64,000 bases of DNA from Rhizodiscina lignyota (GCA_010015805.1 ML978128.1:1116001-1180000), one strand, 5' to 3'; positions 14,479-63,316 are shown, counted from the first letter of the stretch. Translations and numbers: made by a program. The notes: a model not told the origin generated them from the sequence alone.

Positions 14479-14646
14479 CGGCCTTGGCATTTCCTTCACA
14501 TTGTCATCCGTTGTGAATAGTACAATAGAGCCCGCCAACCAGCCACCCAGCCACCTTCGACGCCCAGCCTCTCCTACGAAGGCTTTGCGCAACCTTCAAT
14601 CTTTCTTTTCCCATTTCTCTTTTATCTTCTCAGAACCTAGTACACC

Positions 14647-17600
14647 ATGGCTTCTGATCCTGGCAATTTGCCTCAGGCAGAGGCAGCATCCGATGAAGGA
14701 GAGCAACTCGACTTCCTCGCCACAGCACGCGACCAAGACGACCTCGAGCGCGACATTGGCCGCCAAGCTGACCAAATCCTCACCGAACAAGCCGACGAGC
14801 GAGATAAGAAGAGGAGGGAGAAGACCGAAGCGAGCAAGGCGAAACTTACCACTCAAATTGAGACACTGAAAAAGCGGCTGGCGCAACCCGGCAGTTCGAC
14901 CGTCAAGAATCCGATCAGAGAAGATATTGCGAACTTTGAGGCGACCGTGCGAGAGCTGGACATCGAACTCGAGCAGATTCAGAAGCGCATCGATGACAGG
15001 CATAAAGGTGTGGAGGCTGGAGCGGCTGGTGGCGAAGCAGCGGCGGAGGAAGATGCGAATGGCAACAAGAGGCTTCCGACTGAAAGTCGCAGGGACTTTC
15101 TCATAAGGACGGGCAAGATCACACCGTTCTCTAAGATGCCCGGAATGTTGAAGACGAGCAGCGATTTGGCGGATGTCATGTTGGACGCAGAAGTCGAGGA
15201 TGTGGACGAGGAAGATGAGGAAGAGGAAGAGCAGACTGTTGCAGCCGGAGGACCTAAATCGCATAGAAACTTGCTATTGCCTGGTGGATTCGACGACGAA
15301 ACCAGCGAGACGAGTTCCGCTACTGCGGTCACACCACATCGAGCCACGAAGCGCAGGAGGGTCGAGACATCAGGAAAAGCACGAGAGCCCTCGAAGATAA
15401 TGGACAAGTCTACATCAGAAGAATCAGCAGTTGGAGAGTCCGATGCCTATGAGCCAGGCATGGATGACAAACAGCTTGCTGCGCTGGGCGAGACCGAGTC
15501 TGAGGAGATGGCCGCCGACGACGACGATGATGACTACCAGATGGATACCGAGCCTCATAAGCGGAAGAGAGCTGGCAAGAAGACAAAGCAGAAACAGAAA
15601 GCACAAGTCGAAGAAGCACATGAAGATCTTGCTGGTGTCGACGATGGCAATGAGACGCTGTATCAAGCGCGACTGCAGAATTGGGTTCGCAGGAGAAGCG
15701 AAGCGAGGCGAAAATCCAATGCTCGAAAGGCAATTGACGAAACCGAAGATGACTTGCCGGCGTATGAAGAAGAATGGAACTTGCCACATCCGACGCGACC
15801 AGATACCGTCCTCGACGGTGGGCTGCATATTCCTGGAGACATCTACCCTTCCTTATTCGACTACCAGAAAACTGGAGTACAATGGCTTTGGGAGTTGTAC
15901 ATGCAGCAAGTGGGTGGTATCATTGGTGATGAGATGGGCCTTGGAAAGACGATACAGGTGATCTCCTTCCTCGCTGGCCTTCATCATTCGAAAAAGATCA
16001 CAAAGCCGATCATCGTCGTCACTCCGGCTACCGTGATGAAGCAGTGGGTCAACGAGTTTCACCGATGGTGGCCTCCGCTTAGAGTGTCAATCTTGCACTC
16101 ATCTGGTAGTGGTATGATGAACGTTCGACGAGAGGCAGAAATCGAGGACGACCTTGAGCTTCAGTCTTGGGATGACCAGAGAACGCTGCCTCGAAGTCAC
16201 AAGTCGGCAAAGAAAATTGTCGATCGGGTTGTTCGAAGTGGCCATGTCCTCGTTACCACATACACTGGCCTTCAGACCTACGCCAAATTGCTTATCCCCC
16301 AGGAATGGGAGTATGCTGTCCTGGACGAAGGCCACATGATTCGAAACCCCAATACTGCGATTACTATCTACTGCAAAGAGCTGAAAACGCCGAATAGAAT
16401 CATTCTATCTGGAACACCGATGCAAAACAACCTCACAGAACTTTGGTCGCTGTTCGACTTCGTCTTCCCGATGCGACTAGGCACCTTGGTTAACTTCCGC
16501 CAGCAATTCGAGTTCCCGATCAAACAAGGTGGATATGCAAACGCATCAAACCTGCAGGTCGAAACCGCAATGAAATGTGCTGAGACGTTGAAAGATACAA
16601 TCAGCGCATACCTACTACAGAGATTCAAGGTTGACGTTGCAGCGGATCTGCCAAAGAAGACCGAACGTGTTCTTTTCTGCCGTTTGACCAAGCTGCAGAG
16701 AGATTCATATACCGCTTTCCTGGATTCCGATGAAATGAAATCGATCGAAGCTGGCAAGCGACAGGCTCTCTACGGTGTTGACATTCTTCGCAAGATCAGC
16801 AATCATCCTGATTTGGTTCAGCACAGAGTCTTGTCTAAGAAGGCCAGCTATAACTACGGCGATCCAAAGAAATCCGGAAAGATGCAAGTTGTTCGTGGCC
16901 TGCTCGAAATGTGGAAGAAGAACGGGCACAAGACCCTCCTCTTTGCTCAACATAGGATCATGTTGGATATCTTGGAGAAATTTGTCTCCTCTCTTGACGG
17001 CTTCAATTACCGCCGTATGGATGGTAACACATCCATCAAGGATCGCCAAAGCATGGTCGACGAATTCAACAAGGATCAAGATCTTCACGTTTTCCTTCTG
17101 ACGACCAAAGTCGGCGGACTCGGCGTCAACCTCACCGGTGCTGATCGAGTCATCATATACGATCCAGACTGGAATCCGTCGACTGACGTGCAAGCTCGAG
17201 AGCGAGCATGGCGTCTTGGACAAAAGCGCGAGGTTGAAATATACCGCCTGATGACCGCCGGCACGATCGAGGAGAAGATTTATCATCGCCAAATCTTCAA
17301 ACAGTTCCTCACGAACAAAATCCTGAGGGATCCAAAGCAGCGGCAGACATTCCAGCTGAGAGATCTCCATGACCTGTTCACACTGGGCGAAGTAGAGGGC
17401 AATCAAACGGAGACGGGAAACCTCTTCAAGGGCACCGAGGTCAAGTTCAAAGAGGAGAAGAGAGCCGCGTTGGAGAAGGGCCTACCGACACCTCCAACAG
17501 ATAGCGAGGTTGCCTTATCCAACAAAGTGCTGAAGTCGAAGTCCGCACCGGAGGATGTGAACGCCATTGCTGGCATTTCAAAGCAGGAAGACTACAATCC

Positions 17601-18345
17601 CGAGGATGCGACAACCGAGTCCACCGCAAGGCCTGGTGGAGCCTCTGCTTCAGCATCCAGTAAGAGCGGAGGAACTGCCGATGGTGATGGAAATCAGCAG
17701 AACCAACCGGATCGTATCCTGTCCGCTCTCTTTTCTCGCGCAGGAGTCCAATCGGCTCTCGAGCACGACGCCATCATTGGTAGCAATTCTGGCAAAACCA
17801 AAGTCAGAGCCGACCCGGAGATCATTGCTCGCGAAGCCCGTCGCGTGGCCGCAGAAGCAGCGCGGGAACTCCAGCGTGCAGGCGAGATCGCGAAGACGAT
17901 ACCAGCTGGCGTACCGACGTGGACCGGCCAGTTTGGCGAGGCGGGCCGACCCCCGAGCCCACCCGCACGGCGCATGGGCATGGGTCGTGGACGAGGCAGC
18001 GGTTTCGCTGGTGCTGGCGGGCCTTCCTCCTCATCTGTCCTTTCAAATCTCGCGCGTCGTCAAGGCACCGCGCTTCCGACTGTTCGACCGTCTCCTTCGT
18101 CTTCCGGCACCTCAACGCCGCAGACCCAGCCGAAGGGCAAGGAATTCCTTGTGCTGATCAGAGACTTTCTCAGGACGCATGGGGGCAAGGCGTACACGCA
18201 GATGCTGATTGATCACTTCAATCGTTTCTGCGGCACGCCGCAGAGGACTGCCGACTTCAAGGAGATGCTGAAGAAGATTGCGGTGTTGGAGCAGGGAAGG
18301 AGTGGAGGAAGGGGCCGATGGGTCCTGAAGGAAGAATTCCGTTGA
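14647..18345 (+). CDS. RAD26: SNF2-family DNA repair ATPase RAD26/Rhp26 (CSB/ERCC6 orthologue), intronless
   Basis: 1232-aa ORF: LFDYQKTGVQWLWELY..QVGGIIGDEMGLGKT, LDEGHMIRNP, LSGTPMQNNL, IKQGGYANASNLQV, LLTTKVGGLGVNLTGADRVIIYDPDWNPSTDVQARERAWRLGQ, and a C-terminal winged-helix-like region. Confidence 0.95.
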   Translation: MASDPGNLPQAEAASDEGEQLDFLATARDQDDLERDIGRQADQILTEQADERDKKRREKTEASKAKLTTQIETLKKRLAQPGSSTVKNPIREDIANFEATVRELDIELEQIQKRIDDRHKGVEAGAAGGEAAAEEDANGNKRLPTESRRDFLIRTGKITPFSKMPGMLKTSSDLADVMLDAEVEDVDEEDEEEEEQTVAAGGPKSHRNLLLPGGFDDETSETSSATAVTPHRATKRRRVETSGKAREPSKIMDKSTSEESAVGESDAYEPGMDDKQLAALGETESEEMAADDDDDDYQMDTEPHKRKRAGKKTKQKQKAQVEEAHEDLAGVDDGNETLYQARLQNWVRRRSEARRKSNARKAIDETEDDLPAYEEEWNLPHPTRPDTVLDGGLHIPGDIYPSLFDYQKTGVQWLWELYMQQVGGIIGDEMGLGKTIQVISFLAGLHHSKKITKPIIVVTPATVMKQWVNEFHRWWPPLRVSILHSSGSGMMNVRREAEIEDDLELQSWDDQRTLPRSHKSAKKIVDRVVRSGHVLVTTYTGLQTYAKLLIPQEWEYAVLDEGHMIRNPNTAITIYCKELKTPNRIILSGTPMQNNLTELWSLFDFVFPMRLGTLVNFRQQFEFPIKQGGYANASNLQVETAMKCAETLKDTISAYLLQRFKVDVAADLPKKTERVLFCRLTKLQRDSYTAFLDSDEMKSIEAGKRQALYGVDILRKISNHPDLVQHRVLSKKASYNYGDPKKSGKMQVVRGLLEMWKKNGHKTLLFAQHRIMLDILEKFVSSLDGFNYRRMDGNTSIKDRQSMVDEFNKDQDLHVFLLTTKVGGLGVNLTGADRVIIYDPDWNPSTDVQARERAWRLGQKREVEIYRLMTAGTIEEKIYHRQIFKQFLTNKILRDPKQRQTFQLRDLHDLFTLGEVEGNQTETGNLFKGTEVKFKEEKRAALEKGLPTPPTDSEVALSNKVLKSKSAPEDVNAIAGISKQEDYNPEDATTESTARPGGASASASSKSGGTADGDGNQQNQPDRILSALFSRAGVQSALEHDAIIGSNSGKTKVRADPEIIAREARRVAAEAARELQRAGEIAKTIPAGVPTWTGQFGEAGRPPSPPARRMGMGRGRGSGFAGAGGPSSSSVLSNLARRQGTALPTVRPSPSSSGTSTPQTQPKGKEFLVLIRDFLRTHGGKAYTQMLIDHFNRFCGTPQRTADFKEMLKKIAVLEQGRSGGRGRWVLKEEFR

Positions 18346-18695: not shown

Positions 18696-21600
18696 TCATA
18701 GTAGAGTTGGTCCAACAGACCAGAGAGAGTGCATGCTCTCAAGATACTCGTCCTGCTCATCGTCAACCTCTCCTAACTTCTTAGCCCAACGCCGTGCCCT
18801 CTTCCAAGTCTTATCCTCTTTTTTCTTGCCGTTTAGACTCGAACGTACGCTCGCAGTTGGGTTCTCTAGCAGTTCGTATCCTAGCACGCCCATCTTCCAC
18901 ACTCCACCGCACTCACCACACTCGAGGAGAGCCGATGAATCTGAAACTTGCGCCGTGGCGCCGCATCTGAAGCACGCAAAGTTGCAGCGCTCACAGATCG
19001 CGGTTGCACCGTCCAAGCGAGGTCTGGCTGGTCGATTGCATTTCGAGCATCTGGCTTTGCCGGCCAATAGCTCTCCGTCCTGCACTGGCTTCGCCTCTCG
19101 CAGTGCGCCGGGAATCCTGTCGTGACTTCGTCCACTATCACCGCTCTCTTCCGCTGTGATTTTCAGACCGGCGCTATTCTTGTCGCATCCTTTGACGAGA
19201 CACTGATCGCCCTCTCGCATCTTCGCTTGGAACTCGGCGGCCGCCACGCGTAGCTCTGGAGCATCCATCGCGTCATCGATGAATGGAGTACTCATGTAGT
19301 TAGGGCCTTGGACTGCTTGTCTGATTGGGAGTGAGCCAATTTGACATAATGTTATTGCCTTTAACTCGACAAGGGCCTTCGCAGCGGATATTCCAGAGTC
19401 CGGATCATATGTGGGATCATTGTTCGTCGCACTCGGCTCGGGTGCCTTGCTAAGCTTGAATTGGCGTGCGTTGCGAATAGATCGATCGGCATTTCCAACC
19501 TCCAGCACGTCAACCCTGCCGCTCACAGATCCGATGAGCAACTTGTCCAAATCAGGGCTCCATGCTCCAGACATAACCCCAGAATCCAGTGTCACTACAT
19601 CTCTCACTCTCGCATCTTCAGCAGAACGATAAGGATCCCATGCGATGACTACGCCGTCGGAAGAGCCAGAATAGAGCCTCGTCCTGTCATGTCCCCAGGA
19701 ACAGAATCGTACACCTGTATCGAGCTGTTCGCGTTCTCGCTCATTATCATACTGGAGAGGCTGAAGCGGCTTGCCATGTCTGAAGGTATGCAAGATGTCA
19801 TTGTGTTTTCGGATGTCCCACATGTAGACGGAGCCGTTCGTGCACCCGACTGTGACGAGGAAGTGATCGTGGGGACTGAAGATTACGTCATTGATGTCTG
19901 AAGCAGGGCACTCCATGTCCATAGCGTATGACACCTTTTCTTTCCCCTTCTCTTCACCTAATGCGTAGAGCTTGACAGCACTCTTTATGCCTCTGTTTAC
20001 ATTGACGCCCGCCACGCAGGCTATAGCGAAATTGGATGCGTCTGGTGACCAACTTATATCAAAGACGTTACGGGTGTTTGGCCAGATTGAAATTTGAGCC
20101 TGGTGTGAAATGTCCCACAAGCAAATTTCACCAACAATATCCTGCTTGTCGTCATGCTGGTTGGAGGCAAATCCGCCAAGAAGGTAAGAGTGGACAGATG
20201 GATGCAAACCCCAGCGGAGTGCAGAAGGAAAGGTACGAGTCTCCGGGCGCGTTCGTGCCTTTTCCGAGGAAAGAAGAAGCGTGGTAAGTGGTCCATGCTC
20301 TTGACAGCCGACGATGCGTACGCTTCCTGGGCCAGATATTTGACAGCCTGTAGCAATCACGCTGCTTTCATAATCGGGATGGACAGCTAGGAGATCGACA
20401 GCTGCTTCGTGCTGGATGGCACCGACTAAGCCAGCATCGTCTGACGCCGCATCCCAATAACGCACAACGCCGTCATACCCAGCAGAGTACATGAGCTCTC
20501 CGCTTGGTGAAAAGTCAACTGCGGAGACAGTCATAAACAGCCTCGGATCCTGAGTGGCGTACATCTCGTCGCTGGCGTTGACTCCGGTCTCTTGCTTTTC
20601 TCGCTTGCTGAAATGTGCCGCCAGTTCTTTTACTTCCCCTGTCTCAACACAACCAAGCAGCAGATTGTTAGGCCTATTGTATTGCATGCTGTCTCTATCA
20701 ACCAAGCATGCGGAGCCAGCAGCAAACCTCTCGCCGCCTGAAGCCCATGCGACGGTTCCAACGTCTCCAGAGGTACCTGTGAATGCAATCGAAGGGCCGA
20801 TGGACTCAAAGCCATTCGTGCGAAGATTTGTGCGAGCCTTAATGCTGTTGCTGCCAAGCTCTCGGTTGCGAAGATTCGAGGAGAGCGTTCCAGTTGCGGC
20901 AATTGCACGAGTTACAGGCTTGCCCAGTCGTTGCTTCAAGGGGGTCTTGTTGACGTGACCATCTCTCAGGTCACCCAAGAAAGCCTCAACATCATCTTTA
21001 TGGCGAAAAGGGAGGTATTCGTTCTGCTGTACATGCCAGCCAATTTTATTGATGGCAACATCGTCAGCGTTGTGCATGATAGAGCTCAGCACTTTTAGAA
21101 GAGAGCCATGCTCGTTACCAGCATCTCCCAGAACAGAGCTTATGCTGTACTGGACGCCTTCTAGCTCGTCGTAGTCGAAATCAATGTGGAGCGGCGCCCC
21201 CTGCCATGCTTTGAGGCGTGTCCTGTCCCATTCGCCTTCCAATAAGCCCTGTTGCACTGCTTGTCGCTCTGCGTACGAGAGATATGGTTTTGGATATGGC
21301 TCTGGTGCCTTCTTAGATGCTCGACGGACTCTGCGACTTGGTTGCTCGGGGATGGAAGGGCCCGCTATTTCAGCCTCGGACGGCAGGAAATCTGATCTGC
21401 TGGTGTTTGTCTCTTCTCTGCTTAATCTGAGCGGTGCGAAGTAATTTTCCGGTCTAGCAACGGCTCTACTTGGACGAATTCCATGTTGAGGCGCGGCGGG
21501 CTCTTGTGGCTTTGGAGGCCGTCCTCGAGGTCTCGGTGGCAATATTTGAACGTTGTTCTGCGGCTTTGAGGGCCGTCCTCTCTGTTTAGGAACAGGAGCT

Positions 21601-23348
21601 GACGAAATCAAGGCGGCAACTTGGGCAGATCGGCTCTTTGGAGTAGCTGTCAAGTCCACAGGCGCATATGGTGTACCTGTGTGTCCAGGAGGCGTTTTCA
21701 GTGTGATATTCCTCTTCTTCAGGTCCTCTTTAATCTTCGGAAGATACTTTACTTGCTCCTCGGGAGTAAGCCATCTCTCCAGATTCTGCTCCAAGTATTT
21801 GTTCCATTTTGTTGCCATTGTGCCCGTCGATCGACCCGGATACCACTCTGCGATCTCGTTGAATGTCAGCCCATGGAATAGTCGAAGCTCAACTAGTTTT
21901 CGCAACTCTTCTTGGGTGAATTGTTGGAGTTTGCCACATGGTGGTCTGTTTGCCCATCTTGGCTTCTCAACTGCAAGTTCCGGAGGGAGTGCATCGTTCA
22001 TTCCACTTTGTGCCGGCGCTCGCGACGATGGTTGGTGAGGCGGTGGCGATTGTGGTGAGGGCCGAGCTTCTGATAGATCGACAATGTCTGGCTGCCGCCG
22101 AGGCGGGCCTCGGGGTCTATCCTGAGCGGAAGAGACATGTGTGGATGTTGGTATTGCTTGGCCGCTTCTGAGCGCATTCTGTCCGATTGCCGTATCATTT
22201 GCTTGCTCAGCCTGGACAACGATTGCAGAGCCGTTCTCAAACCGCATCTGAGGGGTATTCGGAGGTCTGAAATATGTCTGCCTTGCAACTTCGTTTGCTT
22301 TCATTTCCTTACGAGCGATTCGGGTAATGAGGGAAGGAGTTGGCAAATCCTTCTGGTGACTCGTCTGGGCTGATGCAAATGAGTCTGAAGAGTCTGAATC
22401 GTTCCTTGCTCGAGTACGTAACGCATTCTTCGAGCTCTCTGCAATCGTTGGGTGAGACTGGCGCTTGTTACTTCCTTTGAGGAAGCGATCTCGGTCACCG
22501 AAGCCGGCGCGCCCGATATCTCTGCTAAGAAGAGCGATGCCGCTCTGGGTCGGGCCTTTCTCAACTCCCGATCCCGACCCAAGAATACTATCGCTTTTGT
22601 CTTGTACATCTTCGTCTTCGGCGGAGTCTTTGGTATCCAGCTGGGCGGCCTGAATTAGCGCATCAAAGGACTTTCTTCCTTCGCCAAGCCTCTTTGCGCC
22701 CTGTCCAGCAAGCCGTGTACCTTCTCCTTCTAGCTCATCATGAGATCCGGAGTATAATCGTGCTCGCGGCCGTTCCTTCGGCGTCGATTCAGGCCAGAAA
22801 TCGGTAAAGCTGTTTCCAATGGATGTGCCACTACCGCTCTTGAGCAATCCACCCGCCGTTCTCTTTGCCGGTATATGCTCCCCTGTAGCGCCACCTGGCA
22901 TCGTCGAATCATCATAAGTTGGCACCAACTTCCGTGGCTTGTGCTCGCCTGGCCGTGGCGTGAAATCGCCAGCCCGCTGTCTCTGTTTCCTTTCCTGAAC
23001 GTATTGTGTCTTCTTGATGTTCCTCTCGATGGCTTTGTGAGCATCTTGCGTGTTATTCAATCCAGCTCTGAACCTCTGAGCCTCTGTCATGGGCAGTTGA
23101 CCGATATCATCCTCGTCGTGTTTGTTGAATAGTGATCGTCGCTTGGACCTTGTTGGTGTTGGAGCATCGTCGTCGGAATCCTCTGCGCCGACAGTCAGGT
23201 CGATTACGGATCCGAGATAGCTGCTCAGAAGTTTAGCCGTCTTCATAGTGCCTGGAGGTCTAGGAACAGGTGGAAAGTTGCTATGATGAGAGTAGTAAGA
23301 GTGTTATATACTGGGTTGTAAAGGAAGATATTACCTTGCTTGAACCAT
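18696..23348 (-). CDS. Large WD40 protein with Myb-like domain, AT-hooks and Cys-rich C-terminus; DCAF-like, resembling the Raf1/Dos1/DIM-9 class
   Basis: 1516-aa ORF 23246-18696, with a possible 14-nt first exon 23348-23335 spliced in frame to 23280. Myb-like FTQEELRKLVELRL...WYPGRSTGTMATKW; AT-hooks KQRGRPSK and PRGRPPK; WD repeats including the WDxR motif YMWDIRK; four CxxC pairs near the C-terminus. Orthology to Raf1/DIM-9 is inferred. Confidence 0.8.
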
Positions 23349-23948: not shown

Positions 23949-26900
23949 TTACGATCCTGACCCAACGTCCACCTGCTTTGCACCCTCAGTCTTAACAGCA
24001 TCGAACTTCTTGTCGTCGTAAGGATATGATCCGTTTGTCGAGGGTGTAGCGAGCTGCATCGGACTGTGGTGGCTCTCAACATTGCCATTGTCCGCTTTGA
24101 CTGGGTAAGCATATACGTCCTCCATCTTGGGACTGCTCTCTGCTGTGGTGCCATTTGCCGCATCTTGGCCTGTCAAATCCTCTGTCATTGCCGAGTAGTC
24201 AAGCACAGAAGAGTCATTCATGTCAGCTCCATGGACGGCAGCATCGTCAAGTTGGACTCCCTCTGGTCGTGGAGGTGGAGGTGGAGGGGGAGGCGGTGGC
24301 GGAGGTGGCGCCACGGCTTTCAGCTTCTTCGGCGAACTCGGGCTGTCCTCTTCATCCTTGGGCGAAGTTCCATCCGGCGTGACCTCATCTTCCCTCTTGC
24401 GCTTAAGATCGGGAGTCTCAGGGGTCTCGTCGCCATTATTCAACAGATCGGCCGGTGTCGTGTCTTTCTCATCATCCGACATTCCGCCCATATCATCGTC
24501 ACTCCCAACATCAACATTCCCGTCCTCCTTTTTCTTCGGAATGTTCGGCTCGCCGGGGGGCGTGTGTGACTCAACCCCCTTCGCCTTTACCTCCCGGTGC
24601 TTCTTATCTTCCCTCTTCTTCTTGTCCTTCTCTTTCGCTTTCGCTTTCTCGAAGTATGTCTGACAGTACTTCTTAACGGCCTTGACTTGTTTGTCAGAGA
24701 TATCTTTCGGGTCAGAGACACGGTTGTGCTTGTAGTCGGACTCGACGAGAGTCTTCGAAACTTCTTTTGCGAGGCGTTTGAGCTGGTCTTTTGGTATGTC
24801 GTGCCGAAATTTGTTCATTACGTGGTGGACATGAGGGAATATCTAGGAATAGAGTTAGCCGGAGCAGAATCCGGGAGCATGAACAAAACGTACAGTATTC
24901 TCATAAATCTTTTTCTGCTTTTCCAGAGAATAGGAGCGCCACTTCTCTTCTTTCTTGTCCTTCGGAGTCTCCTCGGCGGCGGATTGCGGGGTTGCAGCAG
25001 GACGCTTCTCGTTTGGCGTTGAGGCGTTAGTCTTTGTGATGTTGTTGATGATTTCTTGTAGCCTTTGCTCATGGGTCATGGCCTTCGGTGGTGGTGGAGG
25101 TCTGGGTGCCGGTGCAGTTGGCCGCTCCCATGTCGTGTCGGCGGTAGCAGAATAATAATAAGTCTTGCCACCTGACAAGGCCGAGAACCAGCCCTCAGGA
25201 AGAGCATTGAAGGCAGGACGAGGTCGGTAAGGAGGTCGTTGATAAAAATTAGCATTACGCTGAGGCATATTACTCCTTGGGCCTGATGGTGCGGCAGGTC
25301 CACGTGGAGCAGAGACGGATCGTGATCGCGAGCGTTCTCTTGATCGTGAACGTTCTCTAGGACGCTCTCTGCGCTCGTAGCGATCTGTTTGAGCAGCAGC
25401 GACAGCCTTTGGATCACGCTTTACACGCGGGATACGATATCCGACTTCAAGCTTGCTCCAGATTTCCAGCATTTCTGTTGCTTTGGTTTTGATGCGGTCG
25501 TCTTCGTTCCCCTTCAACTTCTCGACCGTCTCCTCGATCTTGGAGTCCTGTATTTTATTGCGAGTTATGCGTGGAAGACTGTGCAAGATGTCGAGCACCT
25601 GGAGGATAACATTGACATCTTCGATCCACGTTGTTATTGTCGACTTCAGAATCTGGTAGCCGTGCATCTTTACGACACGGTTGCGCACTTTCTCGTCATC
25701 GGCTCGTTGGATGCGGTTGAGCAGCTTGACGGCAATCCACTTCTCCTTGCACTGCATGAGAGTTGCCATGACTTTGGTGACAGCACCTTCATCCAAGCTC
25801 TTCGGTTGAACGCTGTCGACATACTCCTCATCGTCCTCATCCTTTCTCTTCTTGCGCGGCTTCTTCGCCACTGCAAAGTCCCAGCCATCTCCGTCGTCGA
25901 TGCCAAGAGCTTCAATAACAGCTGTCGGTAGCTGTGTCGCGCGCTCATCAGTTTGAGTCTTTCCGCCAATCACACCAATGCAGTTAGGTTCACCGCAATA
26001 GCAGACGACTTCCTCCGCACCATAGCGATCAACGTTGTAGTTGAAGACTAATTCCTCGCCCTTCTTGATGCGCCTCTCAGCGAAGATGCCCATGCGCAAC
26101 CGGTCGCCGACGACCCATTTGTCCACGTAGCAGTTTGGATTGCAGGAGTGGTTGCAGAATCGACCAAGGTTTCCCTTTCTGGTGGCGTCCACAAACTCAC
26201 CCTTGCTCAGGCTCATGAAGTAGAAATGCTTGATCTTTTCTTGGTCATATTGGATCGTCCGACGCCGGAACGCGGGTTCGTTGATGACTTCGCCGATATA
26301 TTCAAAAATGAAGTCGTTCGGGTTGAGGTCCGTGTCTGCACGGAGGCCGAAACCTTTCTTCTCGGTCTTGAAGACACTGACCTGGGCCCACTGGCGGTTC
26401 TGGAAGCGTTGGTTTTGGCATCCAGTGCCGCAGCGACAGTCGCCGATACATTCCATCTTCGTTGCGCGATTTATGCAGTCAGAATCCTCGCCGCAGGCCA
26501 AGTTGGACTGCGTCTTCGAATCTATGGTATTTGTTAGCAGTGTGATACATAAACACTTAAGAAGGTAACGGAGTCGCAATCATACCCCACTCATCGTCGC
26601 ACTCGCAGTCAAGAGCATGTTCAGTGGTGCCGATATATTTGTTTGCGTAGATGCACTCCTCGATAACCTGGAACACCGAACAAGCCTCCGCAGTCGTATC
26701 TGGCTCATGCAAGAAGAGTGGAGGCTCCCGCTTGACGATTTTCTGCGATTTTGTCCGCTCCAGTTTGGGCGCTTTTCCCGGCTCCATCTTCAGTGTAATG
26801 TCTCCGCCTACAGTCTCGATGTGCTCTCCGTTGTCCAGCGGTGTGTGGGGTTCGCTGTGTTGCTGTTTGATGGGAGACTGTGATGCGGAAGGTATTTTCT

Positions 26901-59247: not shown

Positions 59248-61333
59248 TTATATATATCCCTGCCGTCTGGCTTTTCGCGTTGCTGCAGAGCTGGTATACA
59301 TACCAGCCTTCGCGGTTCTCGCTCCAAGACGTAGTAGGCCCGATAAATGATGCACACCAGCTAATACTCCGTCTATCACGACAACATCTTCACCCACAGT
59401 GTCCTCTACAGCTTGTTTCAACTTCGTCATGCCTGCGCACCCCAGCGTAAGAGTATCAGCACCATCTGCGACCAGCTGCTCGGCGACGCCGCACATGATA
59501 CCCATCACCTCCTTCTCGCTCCTCGATTCCAATTCTAGCACGCCCAGCTTGCAGCTCCGCACCCCGGCGCAAAAGCTGTCCAATCCGTATGCCTTTACTG
59601 AGTCTTCGAGAGTATATTTGGCACGATTGGACGTCGCGATGATACCGAATCTTCCACCGAGTGTCCGAGCGGCGTACAGACTTGCTTCCATAATTCCGAC
59701 CACAGGCTGCGACAGCTCCTCTCGAAGCATCTTTGTGAGCGTATGATCGCTGTAGCATGCGACCAAGAATGCGTCGTATTCGTGTGCGATGGGTATTATT
59801 GCGCGTGCGGCAGCAGCAGAAGACATGACATCGTCGAATTTGCCTTCGATAGCAGTAGGACCAGGATATGGACAAGTGAAGCCCACGACTTCGACATCGG
59901 GAGGGAGGGTAGGCTCGACCATCTCGACACACTTGTCCGTCATGAATTTAGTCGCATTGGGATTGCAAAGGAGTATTCGAAACGACTTCCTAATTCATTC
60001 TCATATCAGAACAAGCGCTAAATACAAAGAAACTCAGGCACCAGCGAGAAACGGAAACGGCTTACTTGGGCGCGGTTCCGTTTGTTGCTGCGCCATTCGT
60101 CGCATGTCCATTCGTCGCATGTCCATTCACACCATTCGTCGATGTTGTCTCTAGCATTGGTGGCTCGATGACACCGACCTGGGAGGTGATCCTTCCATAA
60201 TGCTCCAATCGTCGATGGCGCTTAAAATCAAACGTTCGCTCCTTTCCAGGCTTGCAGAGGTCTAGGTCGCATTCTGCTACCACTACCTCATCGCCCATTG
60301 TCTTCGTCTCAGCAATGATCTGTCCTTGTGGGTTCGTAATGCAAGAGTTGGCGATCATGAGGAACTTGCCATCGTCATAACCGCATCGTGCAGCACTAAC
60401 GGAAAAGCAGGAGTTGGTGTACGAGTGTCCTTGCATGCTCAGCTTGTGTTGAAATACCGCCATCTCCTCTGCCTCCTTTGGCGCCTGGTCCTTGGGGCTG
60501 CCCCACATATCGGGAGCCCAACCGGTGGTATTGAAGCCGCAGAGAACAACTTCGACTCCTTGAAGGCCTAGGACACGCCAAGCCTCTGCCCATCTACGGT
60601 CATTGCAGACTAGAATCGAACAGCACATATCAGCCGGCAGCTACACTTGTTGAACGCATAGGTCGAGCAAGATTTACCCAAAGCGCTCAGAGTAAGGGGA
60701 AACAAGGCTGAGACGCTTCTGCAGTTGGACGATAAAGACATAGAGCTGGGCCAAAATCGATATAACGCGTATTGCAGGTTACTTACTCATCATTCCGAAT
60801 ATTGGTTGGCCTTCAAAGTCAGGGACGCGGAAGGCTTCAAATCCCAAGTTACCAGGCTTGAAATACCGCTTCTCGAGCTGATTAATAGCATCTGGGTCCG
60901 GGAATGGCTCGTAGTCTCCAGGCAGATGGACTTTCCGGTATTTAGATAGGACCGCACCGGTCTTTGCGTGGTAGTAAATGCAGGTATTGAAGCAGTCTCC
61001 TCCGTCCTTTGCAAGCACCTTCGTCCCATTGACAGCCTCCGCGTACCCTACACAGATGTCGACGCCAAGCTCTCGTGCCTTATCGAAGATTGGTTTCGTG
61101 TCTGGGTTCGTCGTGACATCGCCGTCCTCGAACCATTTCTCCAGCTCCGCCTCTGGGATCAAGAACCGCGGAAAGAATGTTGTGAATGTAACCTCCGGAA
61201 AGCAAGCAACGTCTGCTCCTTGGGCTGCTGCATCTTCGAGCAGCTTGATGAGTCTGTTGAGCGTCTTCGGCCGCGGATCATTAGAATTAACTGCACCAAC
61301 TTGGCAGGCTGCGAGTTTCAGTATTCTCGTCAT
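59248..61333 (-). CDS. Bifunctional N-carbamoyl-D-amino-acid hydrolase (nitrilase superfamily) / hydantoin racemase fusion; 3 exons, ~610 aa
   Basis: Exons 61333-60787, 60609-60066 and 59989-59248 join in frame. Carbamoylase triad motifs FPEVTFTTFFPR, YRKVHLPG, LEKRYFKPG and MICNDRRWAEAWRVLGLQG; a TNG-repeat linker; racemase motifs RILLCNPNAT..MT, AFLVACYSDH, PVVGIMEAS and LGCAGM (both catalytic Cys). Confidence 0.88.
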
Positions 61334-61771
61334 CTCTTCTGTGTTATCTGGAGGATCTAACACTTCTGGTCTCTTCTCCGAGGGCGACAGTGATAAACTT
61401 AAAGGATATATGATTGCCGTTCAGTAGCCGGAAACGTAACGCTAGTGGAAGGCATTAGACAACATATATCAGACGCAGTTCACGGTTTGGTAACCAACAT
61501 CCTGCGGTTCCTCCATTCCGCGGTCTTCTATCCTATAGGAAGACGAGCTAATAATCTATGCCTATCAAAGACACATCTCTTACGTGGATTTTCTTGGGTT
61601 TTGGGCGGGCCGATAAGATAGGATTGCTAAAGCATGCAACCGTCCCGTGCCGATGTACCGAATTAAGCTATTGGGTCCCAGGAAGAGGATGAGCTGCATC
61701 AAAGGTGATGGGGCTGGTTACTATAAACTCTGCGGCTCTTGGAGGCATGATCTGGTGTGAATTCCGGAACG
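61334..61771. promoter_or_regulatory. Divergent promoter with multiple HGATAR (AreA/Nit2-type) sites
   Basis: 438 bp between the two ATGs. HGATAR at about 61344(-), 61391(+), 61562(-), 61611(+) and 61616(+). TATAAA at about 61722. Confidence 0.55.
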
Positions 61772-63316
61772 ATGGAGGTTGAGCTCCTGGTTAAAAATGC
61801 TACCATAGTAAGAAATCTATTCGCCAGCCCCTAAATCTCCCGAGGCCGGAGCTAACCGTTTCAGGCCACAGCTTCAGATGTCATCCTGGACCAGCAGATC
61901 GCTGTCAAGGATGGAAAGATCTTTCTACTGGGCAAGGATCTCTCGAACATTGTAAACGCAAAATCCACAATTGACGCCTTTGGTGCATATGTGACTCCCG
62001 GTGGTGTCGACTCTCACGTCCATCTCCATCAAGACAACGCTCCGGCAGGGGACAATTTCGAGACAGGAACCCGGTCCGCAATTGCAGGTGGTACGACAAC
62101 AATACTTGCATTCGCATCGCAGAAAAAGACGGATGAAAGTATCATCCCGGTAGTAGAAGAGTACCACCGACGTGCCTCCGGAAATGCGTATTGCGACTAT
62201 GGCTTCCACCTCATCCTGTCCAAACCCAATGCTACCATCTTGGAGAAAGAACTTCCCACTCTGGTCAAGGACGGAGGGATATCCTCAGCAAAACTGTACA
62301 TGACGTATGCTCGACTAAAATTATCGGACTATGAAGTCTTAGACATAATGAACGCAACGAGGAAGTTGGGTATGACTACCATGATCCACGCGGAGAATGG
62401 CGACATGATCGAATTCATTTCCGAGCATCTCGAGAAGCAAAGGATCACTGGACCTTATTCACACGCTTTGAGTCGTCCAGGTATCGTTGAGGATGAGGCA
62501 ACCTACCGAGCGATCTCCCTATCCGAGCTTATGGACATACCACTTCTAATCGTTCACATGTCGCAAAAGACTGCGGCTAGTCATGTTCGCAATGCACAAA
62601 CACGACTCCTTCCCATCCATGCGGAGACGTGTCCGCACTACCTCTACCTTACAAGTACGCGGCTCAAAGATCCTGGCGATTCTGGCTTTGCTGGCGCGAT
62701 GTGCGTGTGCTCTCCTGCTCTACGCGATGATCCGATGGACCTCGAAGCTATGTGGGCGGGCCTGAACAACGGCACTTTCACAACTGTTGCGTCGGACCAT
62801 GCACCTGACAAGTACGACCATCCACAGGGAAAGAAGGCAGGTCTTATTGACGGTAAAGGCCACTTTCGGAAGATCCCTAACGGTTTGCCTGGGCTGGAGA
62901 CGCGCATGCCGCTGCTGTTCAAAGGTGTACTAGATGGCAGGATCAGCATCCAGAAGTTTGTGGAGTTGAATTGCAGCAATCCGGCGAAGCTGTATGGGAT
63001 GAGCGATCGAAAGGGCACCATTGCGCCGGGGATGGATGCAGATCTGGTTATTTGGTATCCGGTCGAGGGGGATAAGAAGATGGGATCGTTCGCGCTGACG
63101 AATGAAATGTTACACCATGACATTGACTATACGCCGTTTGAAGGAACAGAATTTGCGAACTGGCCGAGGTATACGATTTTGAGGGGCAAAATTGTGTGGG
63201 ATCGAGACGGCGTCGGTTTGGCTGGCGTTAAAGGTGATGGACAGTATCTGAAGAGGGGGAGCAGCACGTTAAGCAAGCCTAGAGATATCTGGGTGAATGA
63301 TTGGAGACCTTCGTAA
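61772..63316 (+). CDS. D-hydantoinase / dihydropyrimidinase (cyclic amidohydrolase); 2 exons, ~495 aa
   Basis: Exon 61772-61807 (MEVELLVKNATI), intron 61808-61864, exon 61865-63316. Metal-ligand motifs PGGVDSHVH, SAKLYM, IHAEN, IVHMS and ASDHAP, plus AETCPHYL, PNGLPGLETR and NPAKLYG..KGTIAPGMDAD. Confidence 0.93.

Follow-up and report, generated by a model that had tools for sequence, protein, structure and literature searches.

A carbamoylase-racemase fusion gene head-to-head with a PYD2-family hydantoinase gene in Rhizodiscina lignyota: a putative fungal module for the use of chiral cyclic ureides

Bacterial hyu gene clusters, as in Agrobacterium, Sinorhizobium and Arthrobacter, encode a D-hydantoinase, a D-carbamoylase (EC 3.5.1.77) and a hydantoin racemase. 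In yeast, the pathway partner of the dihydropyrimidinase PYD2 is PYD3, an M20-type beta-alanine synthase and not a carbon-nitrogen hydrolase (CN-hydrolase), and this pathway operates without a racemase. Another yeast protein, DCG1, is presumably a relative of the allantoin racemase type. The bacterial 'hydantoinase process' is treated in two reviews (PMC7431475, PMC7247363). Here we describe a stretch of 64,000 nt from the fungus Rhizodiscina lignyota (ML978128.1:1116001-1180000, hereafter the window) which carries, at positions 59248..63316, members of the same three enzyme families in two divergently transcribed genes: a hydantoinase gene on the + strand and, on the - strand, a gene in which a carbamoylase and a racemase are fused.

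Compared with the bacterial hyu clusters, the locus of R. lignyota is in several ways familiar. The same three enzyme families are encoded together, as the preliminary description of the locus had proposed in drawing a parallel to the bacterial activities, the catalytic and carboxylate-binding motif of the carbamoylase is identical, and the order carbamoylase then racemase is also bacterial. In contrast to its bacterial counterparts, however, the module is eukaryotic and intron-bearing, with carbamoylase and racemase in one polypeptide. Its hydantoinase belongs to the fungal PYD2 lineage and not to the type found beside the closest bacterial carbamoylases. Furthermore, the genes form a divergent pair instead of an operon, and there is no permease gene nearby among 23 window open reading frames (ORFs). 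In the literature that we searched (Creative Commons papers in PMC, and bioRxiv), no functional study of the fungal fusion, of the gene pair or of the unfused gene cluster described below was found. The preliminary description had left the novelty of the locus to a search, and it proves limited: public databases already contain the proteins and their domain architecture, named automatically in fungal genomes as, e.g., 'carbon-nitrogen hydrolase', 'N-carbamoyl-D-amino acid hydrolase' or 'dihydropyrimidinase'. The nearest paper in that literature is a study of OpaE, a fungal protein from another branch of the racemase subfamily to which the fusion belongs (PMC12661438).

The carbamoylase-racemase fusion is real. 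When relatives of its racemase exon were collected among longer proteins, 236 were obtained at E <= 1e-10 from 8000 scored candidates, and the best 120 of these 236 were listed; this scope, matches listed, applies to all statements on named species made here and below. Both domains, CN_hydrolase (PF00795) and Asp_Glu_race (PF01177), are carried by 118 of the 120, most of them of about 600 residues, and the remaining two, from Aureobasidium pullulans, carry PF01177 only. The fused proteins come from Dothideomycetes (Alternaria, Stemphylium, Bipolaris, Hortaea, Phyllosticta and others), from Eurotiomycetes (many Aspergillus species, Paecilomyces, Thermoascus, Emmonsiellopsis), from Colletotrichum among the Sordariomycetes, and from the basidiomycetes Gloeophyllum trabeum and Neolentinus lepideus (Gloeophyllales). 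A cluster of the ESM-Atlas with both domains comprises 65 members, all of them (100%) eukaryotic. We also made one scan of metagenomes, which gave 80 loci (designated by L-numbers) that were then searched with the three protein parts of the window, and 12 of these loci hold the fused form. Since the fusion is a single uninterrupted ORF in L001 (632 residues), L002 (640) and L005 (614), it is independent of any splice model. Two loci, L027 and L028, were considered as independent fusions and rejected, since they hold separate genes in which the carbamoylase is followed by a stop and the racemase possesses a Met of its own. The separate racemases of these two loci (L027, 9625-10944; L028, 3193-4839) bear a Pro/Gln/Ser-rich N-terminal extension of 190-290 residues without a Pfam match.

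In the window, the fusion gene (61333-59248, - strand) comprises three exons and encodes 610 residues, a D-carbamoylase-type CN-hydrolase followed by an allantoin/hydantoin-type racemase with two cysteines. Three stop-free frames of the - strand (60779-61420, 60062-60640 and 59248-59994) are joined by GT..AG introns. Exon 1 (60787..61333) encodes the N-terminal half of the carbamoylase with the Glu of FPE, the Lys of YRKVHLPG and the LEKRYF motif. Intron 1 (60610..60786; 177 nt, GTAAGT..TAG, phase 1) lies immediately 5' of the catalytic Cys codon, and its junction, '..PIFGMM-I-CNDRRW..' (PIFGMMICNDRRW), is gap-free against all 10 aligned full-length homologues; the intron is absent from the uninterrupted ORFs of L001, L002 and L005. 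Exon 2 (60066..60609) provides the C-terminal carbamoylase half, with the catalytic Cys, the Asn and the Arg-Arg pair of CNDRRW, and a low-complexity linker (TNGVNGHATNGHATNGAATNGTAPK). Within this linker lies intron 2 (59990..60065; 76 nt, GTAAGC..TAG), whose junction '..K-K/x-xRILLCNPN..' returns to gap-free alignment with the 10 homologues after the variable part. The ORF of L029 is also broken in the linker, with a GTGAGT donor. Exon 3 (59248..59989; coding 59989-59251, TAA at 59250-59248) holds the racemase domain with NPN..M and the cysteines of ACYSD and GCAGM. As there is no ATG in exon 3 upstream of the conserved NPN motif, the racemase part cannot be made on its own. The donor of intron 2, AAG|TAAGC, is in frame and is followed by an in-frame TAA (60064-60062, - strand); retention of the intron therefore leads to an immediate stop after ..GTAPK and to a carbamoylase of 364 residues alone. 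One might speculate that this retention could act as a switch between fused and unfused enzyme. The low-complexity segment of the linker (60075-60140, - strand; TNGVNGHATNGHATNGAATNG) is encoded by a short direct DNA repeat, and linker length and sequence differ among the homologues. The carbamoylase of the window also has an insertion of about 8 residues (the NGTKVLAKDGG region), which is not found in the 10 aligned homologues.

The three domain identifications of the preliminary description, and the gene fusion itself, were confirmed by Pfam, NCBIfam and solved-structure matches. All elements were found at the coordinates given there, and the carbamoylase motifs TTFFPR, YRKVHLPG, LEKRYFKPG and ICNDRRWAEAWRVLGLQG are all present in the translation. 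For the carbamoylase, CN_hydrolase (PF00795) is matched by exon 1 (3e-15, profile positions 1-141) and by exon 2 (1e-15, profile positions 149-253). Among solved structures, exon 1 is closest to the D-carbamoylases 6lcg and 1erz (E 1.7e-31 to 1.1e-28), the next family following at 6.5e-5 (3ivz), and no animal beta-ureidopropionase is among its solved-structure matches at E <= 1e-3. Exon 2 likewise matches the D-carbamoylases 8i99, 6le2 and 1erz (E 2.7e-34 to 1e-30), and its C-N-D-R-R-W is identical to that of 8i99. The positions of Glu47, Lys127, Cys172, Asn173 and Arg175/176 are kept, and they are invariant in 10 of the 10 full-length fused homologues over which the catalytic residues were scored. 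According to a D-carbamoylase study, Glu47, Lys127 and Cys172 form the catalytic triad, Asn173 and Arg176 are hydrogen-bond partners of the substrate, and the enzyme is inactive on the N-carbamoyl-L-amino acids tested (PMC11503299). The domain is thus best assigned to the D-carbamoylase type, and we infer that it would hydrolyse with D-stereochemistry.

The racemase domain of exon 3 matches Asp_Glu_race (PF01177) at 4.6e-55. Its closest solved relatives are allantoin racemases (5lfd, 1.4e-30; 3qvj, 1.6e-24), while glutamate racemase follows at 3e-6 only. ACYSD and GCAGM align to ACFGD and GCGGM of 3qvj, and both cysteines are invariant in 10 of 10 fused homologues. In KpAllR, according to PMC12661438, the catalytic cysteines are Cys79 and Cys184, and allantoin-hydantoin racemases are typified by Asn/Asp12, Met17, Thr/Ser118 and Thr119. 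By alignment to 3qvj, the equivalents of Asn12 (NPN), Met17 (KFMT) and Thr119 are present in the window, but position 118 holds Ala. KpAllR/HpxA (3qvj) and Pseudomonas fluorescens AllR (5lfd) share with the domain its pair of cysteines and the residues at positions 12 (Asn), 17 (Met) and 119 (Thr). What differs from the allantoin racemases, besides Ala at position 118, is that the domain forms the C-terminal part of a carbamoylase protein and that the neighbouring amidohydrolase scores as a hydantoinase, not as an allantoinase. In 5lfd/5lg5 (P. fluorescens allantoin racemase) the column of the first catalytic Cys shows a Gly (..QAGYGEH..), whereas the window and 3qvj have Cys; this Gly may be a variant or may reflect a different local alignment. 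OpaE, a fungal epimerase from the family of Asp/Glu racemases in oxepinamide biosynthesis, is described as a stand-alone protein encoded within a biosynthetic cluster, with hydrophobic substrate pockets and with other residues at the Asn12-type positions, where the window keeps the allantoin-hydantoin racemase set (PMC12661438).

The + strand gene (61772-63316) encodes a hydantoinase/dihydropyrimidinase of the yeast PYD2 family with 495 residues and no stop in the spliced translation. Exon 1 (61772..61807) starts at the ATG at 61772 and consists of 12 codons only (MEVELLVKNATI), followed by an intron of 57 nt (61808..61864; GTAAGA..CAG, with a CTAAC branch site) and by exon 2 (61865..63316; coding to 63313, stop at 63314-63316), which contains the metal-site motifs. 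A first exon of 12 codons with a phase-0 intron after codon 12 is common to the window, L029 (intron of 58 nt) and the clade B locus L023 (59 nt); the comparison covers these three, as the intron position could not be placed in L009 and L016. Pfam identifies the product as Amidohydro_1. Exon 2 alone exceeds the cut-off of the NCBIfam equivalog model for D-hydantoinase/dihydropyrimidinase (TIGR02033; 412.5 bits against 393.25), whose description treats both activities as one enzyme family, while the product stays below the NCBIfam cut-offs for allantoinase (200.7 against 357.85 bits) and dihydroorotase (214.6 against 452 bits). The NCBIfam 'dihydropyrimidinase' subfamily model PRK13404 gives 527 bits, under its cut-off of 647. 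The closest solved structure is PYD2 dihydropyrimidinase of Lachancea (Saccharomyces) kluyveri (2fty, E 1.8e-126), and bacterial D-hydantoinases are next (3.8e-91 and weaker). All six metal-site residues are kept: DSHVH (H63/H65), SAK (K155), HAENG (H187), VHMS (H243) and SDHAP (D323). We take these motifs to represent a binuclear metal site of HxH, carboxylated Lys, His, His and Asp. They align with 2fty, with the metal ligands and the carboxylated-lysine motif in common, and the ligand columns are conserved in both fungal hydantoinase clades. Yeast PYD2 (559 residues) differs by extra segments, and its match falls into two separate parts.

Between both start codons lies a shared divergent promoter and 5' untranslated region of 438 bp (61334..61771), the head-to-head spacing that had been described before. 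It contains five HGATAR sequences (61344, 61391, 61562, 61611 and 61616), HGATAR being the recognition sequence of AreA/NIT2-type GATA nitrogen regulators. Their density is 11.4/kb compared to 2.12/kb across the window, and at least five sites occur in 0.9% of 438-bp tiles; CGG..CCG pairs are not enriched in the promoter. Such a GATA-rich promoter would fit a nitrogen-regulated catabolism and is weak evidence for it.

The pairing recurs outside R. lignyota, which speaks for an arrangement beyond chance. In the metagenome locus L029 a hydantoinase gene again lies head-to-head with the fusion (538 bp apart, 70% identity). For the hydantoinase, 120 relatives were listed as well, and 17 named species occur in both hit lists; Aureobasidium pullulans was left out of these 17, as its rows come from different strains. 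In 14 of them fusion and hydantoinase share a contig, i.e., both proteins have the same contig entry, which is not the same as adjacency: G. trabeum, N. lepideus, Saccharata proteae, Phyllosticta citricarpa and the Aspergillus species desertorum, californicus, unguis, cavernicola, spinulosporus, egyptiacus, stella-maris, mulundensis, nanangensis and crustosus. Several of the shared contigs are only 77-150 kb long, one further contig of 12.6 kb also carries both genes, and in A. nanangensis the locus tags are adjacent (FE257_005703/FE257_005704). The three species without a shared contig are Delphinella strobiligena, Colletotrichum eremochloae and Meristemomyces frigidus.

Besides the fused form, a sister module with separate genes was found. 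In loci of eukaryote-like character (GC content 0.46-0.56, sparse ORFs) an unfused carbamoylase is 50-57% identical to that of the window. A hydantoinase gene stands head-to-head with it in L009, L010, L015, L016 and L023, of which L009 and L010 are near-identical, and in 11 loci a separate racemase gene lies beside the unfused carbamoylase, mostly in convergent orientation. In seven unfused loci (L009/L010, L011, L014, L015, L019, L021) a transcription-factor gene with a Fungal_trans domain adjoins the racemase; it is 72-100% identical among these loci and probably encodes a pathway-specific regulator of the unfused module. No such gene is near the fused version in the window, L001, L005, L007 or L029. 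Unfused carbamoylase and hydantoinase share a contig in five named species (Phialocephala subalpina, Coleophoma cylindrospora, Xylographa parallela, Pycnora praestabilis and Polychaeton citri) and on four further contigs, with the locus tags M1827_000326/000327 in Pycnora praestabilis and MMC32_003701 and 003705 in Xylographa parallela. In Scytalidium lignicola the two genes are on different contigs.

Phylogenetic analysis showed that hydantoinase and carbamoylase diverged in parallel as two module types. A FastTree phylogeny of 126 hydantoinase rows (the 120 listed matches, the window, four loci and one bacterial outgroup) resolves two fungal clades. Clade A (60 rows, support 97) comprises the window, L029 and every row, 15 in total, whose contig also carries a fusion. 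Clade B (63 rows, support 88) comprises L009, L016, L023 and every row, nine in total, whose contig also carries an unfused carbamoylase. Thus, 17 of 17 fusion-linked hydantoinases fall into clade A and 12 of 12 unfused-linked ones into clade B. The active-site consensus of the two clades offers no clear, interpretable clade-specific difference. For the carbamoylase, an unrooted tree of 82 rows was obtained by an IQ-TREE quick search, for which 25 fused proteins were taken from the 120 listed and 32 bacterial loci from about 125, together with the window, 6 fused and 18 unfused loci. Bacterial and eukaryote-like rows are split with support of 100, and 17 of the 18 unfused rows form one clade (support 85), the outlier L022 having a very long branch. 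The fused label corresponds to one change of state on this tree, and a single origin of the fusion is probable. In the hydantoinase tree as well as in the carbamoylase tree, Colletotrichum is placed with Dothideomycetes of the Botryosphaeriales type, and because the grouping is the same the pair may have moved together. The copies of the basidiomycete Gloeophyllales are about 70% identical to the ascomycete proteins of the window; together with the Colletotrichum grouping, this identity hints that the pair as a whole was transferred from one fungus to another. Both a fused and an unfused carbamoylase occur in Meristemomyces frigidus and in Lophiotrema nucula, although the two M. frigidus proteins have different locus-tag prefixes and may stem from different assemblies, and Coleophoma cylindrospora possesses two clade B hydantoinases. 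Since some species appear to hold more than one version, the module versions may differ in substrate.

It had also been suggested that the module might be of bacterial ancestry with later intron gain. In a bacterial comparison set of 80 loci, chosen by similarity, the nearest carbamoylases belong to Alphaproteobacteria (Roseomonas and further Acetobacteraceae, Bradyrhizobium, Methylocapsa and others) and are 42-49% identical to that of the window. However, a hydantoinase-like gene near the carbamoylase, found in 24 of the 80 loci, reaches 23-27% identity only (39% in Robbsia), and a racemase, found near the carbamoylase in 20 of the 80, reaches 27-32%. In the five bacterial loci L038, L085, L123, L136 and L149 the racemase comes after the carbamoylase, on its strand and in all five as a separate ORF. 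Because the identity of hydantoinase and racemase is low and the hydantoinase intron position is common to both fungal clades, the module does not represent a bacterial operon that was transplanted. At most the carbamoylase, placed in an unrooted tree with a bacterial sample chosen by similarity, may be of bacterial origin; for the hydantoinase the best solved relative, yeast PYD2, speaks against such an origin as well.

Taken together, we lean towards the interpretation that the two genes form an inducible nitrogen-scavenging module for chiral cyclic ureides, i.e., 5-substituted hydantoins or close analogues, and regard it as somewhat probable. By ring opening, the PYD2-family metallo-amidohydrolase would convert one enantiomer to an N-carbamoyl amino acid. 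The racemase domain would interconvert the ring enantiomers by a two-cysteine 1,1-proton transfer, so that the whole pool would become usable. The carbamoylase domain would then remove the carbamoyl group by a thioester mechanism with Glu, Lys and Cys, which would leave an amino acid together with NH3 and CO2. Both genes would be read from the one GATA-rich promoter of 438 bp, as expected of a nitrogen-regulated catabolism.

Several observations weigh against this interpretation. Substrate and stereochemistry are predicted from homology, at 42-49% identity to the bacterial enzymes in the case of the carbamoylase, and the only characterised fungal member of the hydantoinase's family is a dihydropyrimidinase (2fty). 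The fusion joins the presumed first and third steps and not consecutive ones. GATA sites are sparser in related loci (2.4-5.4/kb), the intergenic regions of the window and L029 have no word of at least 9 bases in common, and no permease, transporter or regulator is among the 23 large window ORFs tested. An upstream flank of 2.3 kb or more is available for seven fused metagenome loci (L001, L002, L005, L006, L007, L029 and L039, with L005, L006 and L039 looking like one sequence). Among these, L029 alone has the hydantoinase, i.e., one of seven or one of five distinct loci; L017 and L031, with a partial carbamoylase at the contig end, have no hydantoinase upstream. The hydantoinase is likewise present in only five of the nine unfused loci with the same minimal flank, and adjacent locus tags were found in only two named species, A. 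nanangensis and Pycnora, while the tags are four apart in Xylographa parallela. At the level of residues, the position of His144, included among the ligand-contacting residues of D-carbamoylase in PMC11503299, is Gln in the window (..NQLEKRYF compared to ..QHLEKRYF of 6lcg). It is not a triad residue, and this Gln is invariant in the fused fungal set and also occurs in bacterial relatives found by the pattern [NQ]QLEKRYF. Similarly, the position of Thr/Ser118 of KpAllR is Ala in the window (..IIATS..), with an invariant Ser following. A functional link between the genes, as put forward in the preliminary description, is supported by the recurrent clustering in several arrangements (14 of 17 species, L029 and the unfused loci), by the parallel trees and by the GATA-rich promoter. 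The pairing is not universal, however: four of the five distinct fused loci have no hydantoinase nearby.

Because both fungal hydantoinase clades, that is, most of the 120 matches listed, are tied to a carbamoylase-type gene, as a general pathway of two steps would lead one to expect, dihydropyrimidine catabolism is the main rival, which we judge unlikely but worth serious consideration. The PYD2-type dihydropyrimidinase would then act with a carbamoylase-type enzyme that replaces the missing beta-ureidopropionase (PYD3) in filamentous fungi, the racemase would serve chiral dihydrothymine or have a side role, and beta-alanine or beta-aminoisobutyrate would be formed along with NH3 and CO2. This would agree with 2fty as closest solved relative, with the PRK13404 score of the hydantoinase and with the single family into which TIGR02033 places D-hydantoinase and dihydropyrimidinase. 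However, the PRK13404 score remains under its cut-off, the partner enzyme is not of the known PYD3 type, and no M20 enzyme is encoded in the window. Other CN-hydrolases are distant from the carbamoylase, as the 3ivz match and the lack of animal beta-ureidopropionase among the solved-structure matches illustrate. Dihydrouracil is achiral, and yet the racemase is conserved in both module types; dihydrothymine is chiral, which weakens the earlier argument that a racemase speaks against pyrimidine catabolism without removing it. Furthermore, the CNDRRW motif is kept with the Asn and Arg that, according to PMC11503299, contact N-carbamoyl-alpha-amino acids.

Since carbamoylase and racemase are more tightly coupled to each other than to the hydantoinase, the racemase might also act after ring opening, on the N-carbamoyl amino acid or on the freed D-amino acid, which would yield the usable L-form. 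In that case the steps joined by the fusion would be consecutive, and the fusion could do without a hydantoinase. Besides the 118 of 120 fused homologues listed, the adjacency of both genes in 11 unfused fungal loci and in the five bacterial loci, three of which lack a hydantoinase within 6 kb, fits this possibility, as do the four distinct fused metagenome loci without a nearby hydantoinase. We know of no member of the racemase superfamily that racemises N-carbamoyl amino acids, though, and the domain is much nearer to allantoin/hydantoin racemases than to Glu/Asp racemases. The hydantoinase may, moreover, sit elsewhere in those genomes. Fungal members of the racemase subfamily do act on other substrates, OpaE being an example, but the Asn12, Met17 and Thr119 positions of the subfamily's ring-binding enzymes are kept (PMC12661438). 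All in all, we consider such a role of the racemase rather improbable.

Very improbable, in our view, is a tailoring function in secondary metabolism, with epimerisation of a cyclic, peptide-like ring by the racemase and its processing by the two hydrolases. OpaE and NozR are reported to have such roles in fungi and bacteria (PMC12661438), and cytochrome P450 genes adjoin the module in L027 and L029. However, the window contains no nonribosomal peptide synthetase, polyketide synthase or other core gene, the neighbours are of housekeeping type, the module stands in unrelated neighbourhoods in L001, L005, L007 and L029, and its polar Asn12-type residues differ from the hydrophobic pockets reported for OpaE (PMC12661438). 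Finally, an artefact of the gene model, with two separate genes or a racemase pseudogene, might be read from the in-frame TAA at the donor of intron 2 and the resulting carbamoylase of 364 residues, but it is hardly credible given the lack of an ATG before NPN in exon 3, the spliced frame that is open over 610 residues, the relatives with an uninterrupted fusion ORF and the intact catalytic residues of the racemase.

The direct neighbours of the module in the window encode an F-box-like protein and a phosphoglucomutase. Pex16, CDC50, a protein resembling platelet-activating factor (PAF) acetylhydrolase and an M43 peptidase are encoded further right, an ordinary housekeeping context. Other genes of the window (23949-26579, - strand; 14641-18345, + strand; 18696-23303, - strand) encode a Set2-type histone methyltransferase (AWS, SET, SRI), an SNF2-family helicase and a WD40 protein of 1535 residues. 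At the left end (3-1316, - strand), a class-III aminotransferase gene (Aminotran_3, 3.9e-90) runs off the window. Class-III aminotransferases include beta-alanine and gamma-aminobutyric acid (GABA) transaminases, but the distance of 58 kb argues against a link to the module. In the metagenome loci, cytochrome P450 genes lie beside the module in L027 (5792-7483, - strand) and L029 (3742-5214, + strand), and a gene for a major facilitator superfamily (MFS) transporter lies beside the hydantoinase in L016 (2368-3264, - strand). These P450 and MFS genes could be further members of the pathway or chance neighbours.

If the preferred reading, a module for chiral cyclic ureides, is correct, a pathway would be assigned to a widespread fungal gene pair or triplet that is now named by automatic similarity only. 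The view, taken by default, that homologues of PYD2 in fungi have no role other than pyrimidine breakdown would need correction. The locus would further provide the industrial 'hydantoinase process' in a compact eukaryotic form of two genes, in which nature has already joined carbamoylase and racemase. More tentatively, and with considerable doubt, one may envision that filamentous fungi and some wood-rot basidiomycetes hold two old, separately evolving versions of a dedicated hydantoin pathway, in one of which the fusion would perform dynamic kinetic resolution and decarbamoylation in a single polypeptide. In that case, most 'dihydropyrimidinase' annotations in Pezizomycotina would indicate the wrong pathway, and these fungi would possess an unrecognised route by which natural hydantoins, e.g., oxidised nucleobases or further ureides, are turned into ammonia and possibly into free D-amino acids. 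The two co-diverging types, one fused and one unfused with a transcription factor of its own, offer a natural comparison for the evolution of substrate range and of gene fusion.

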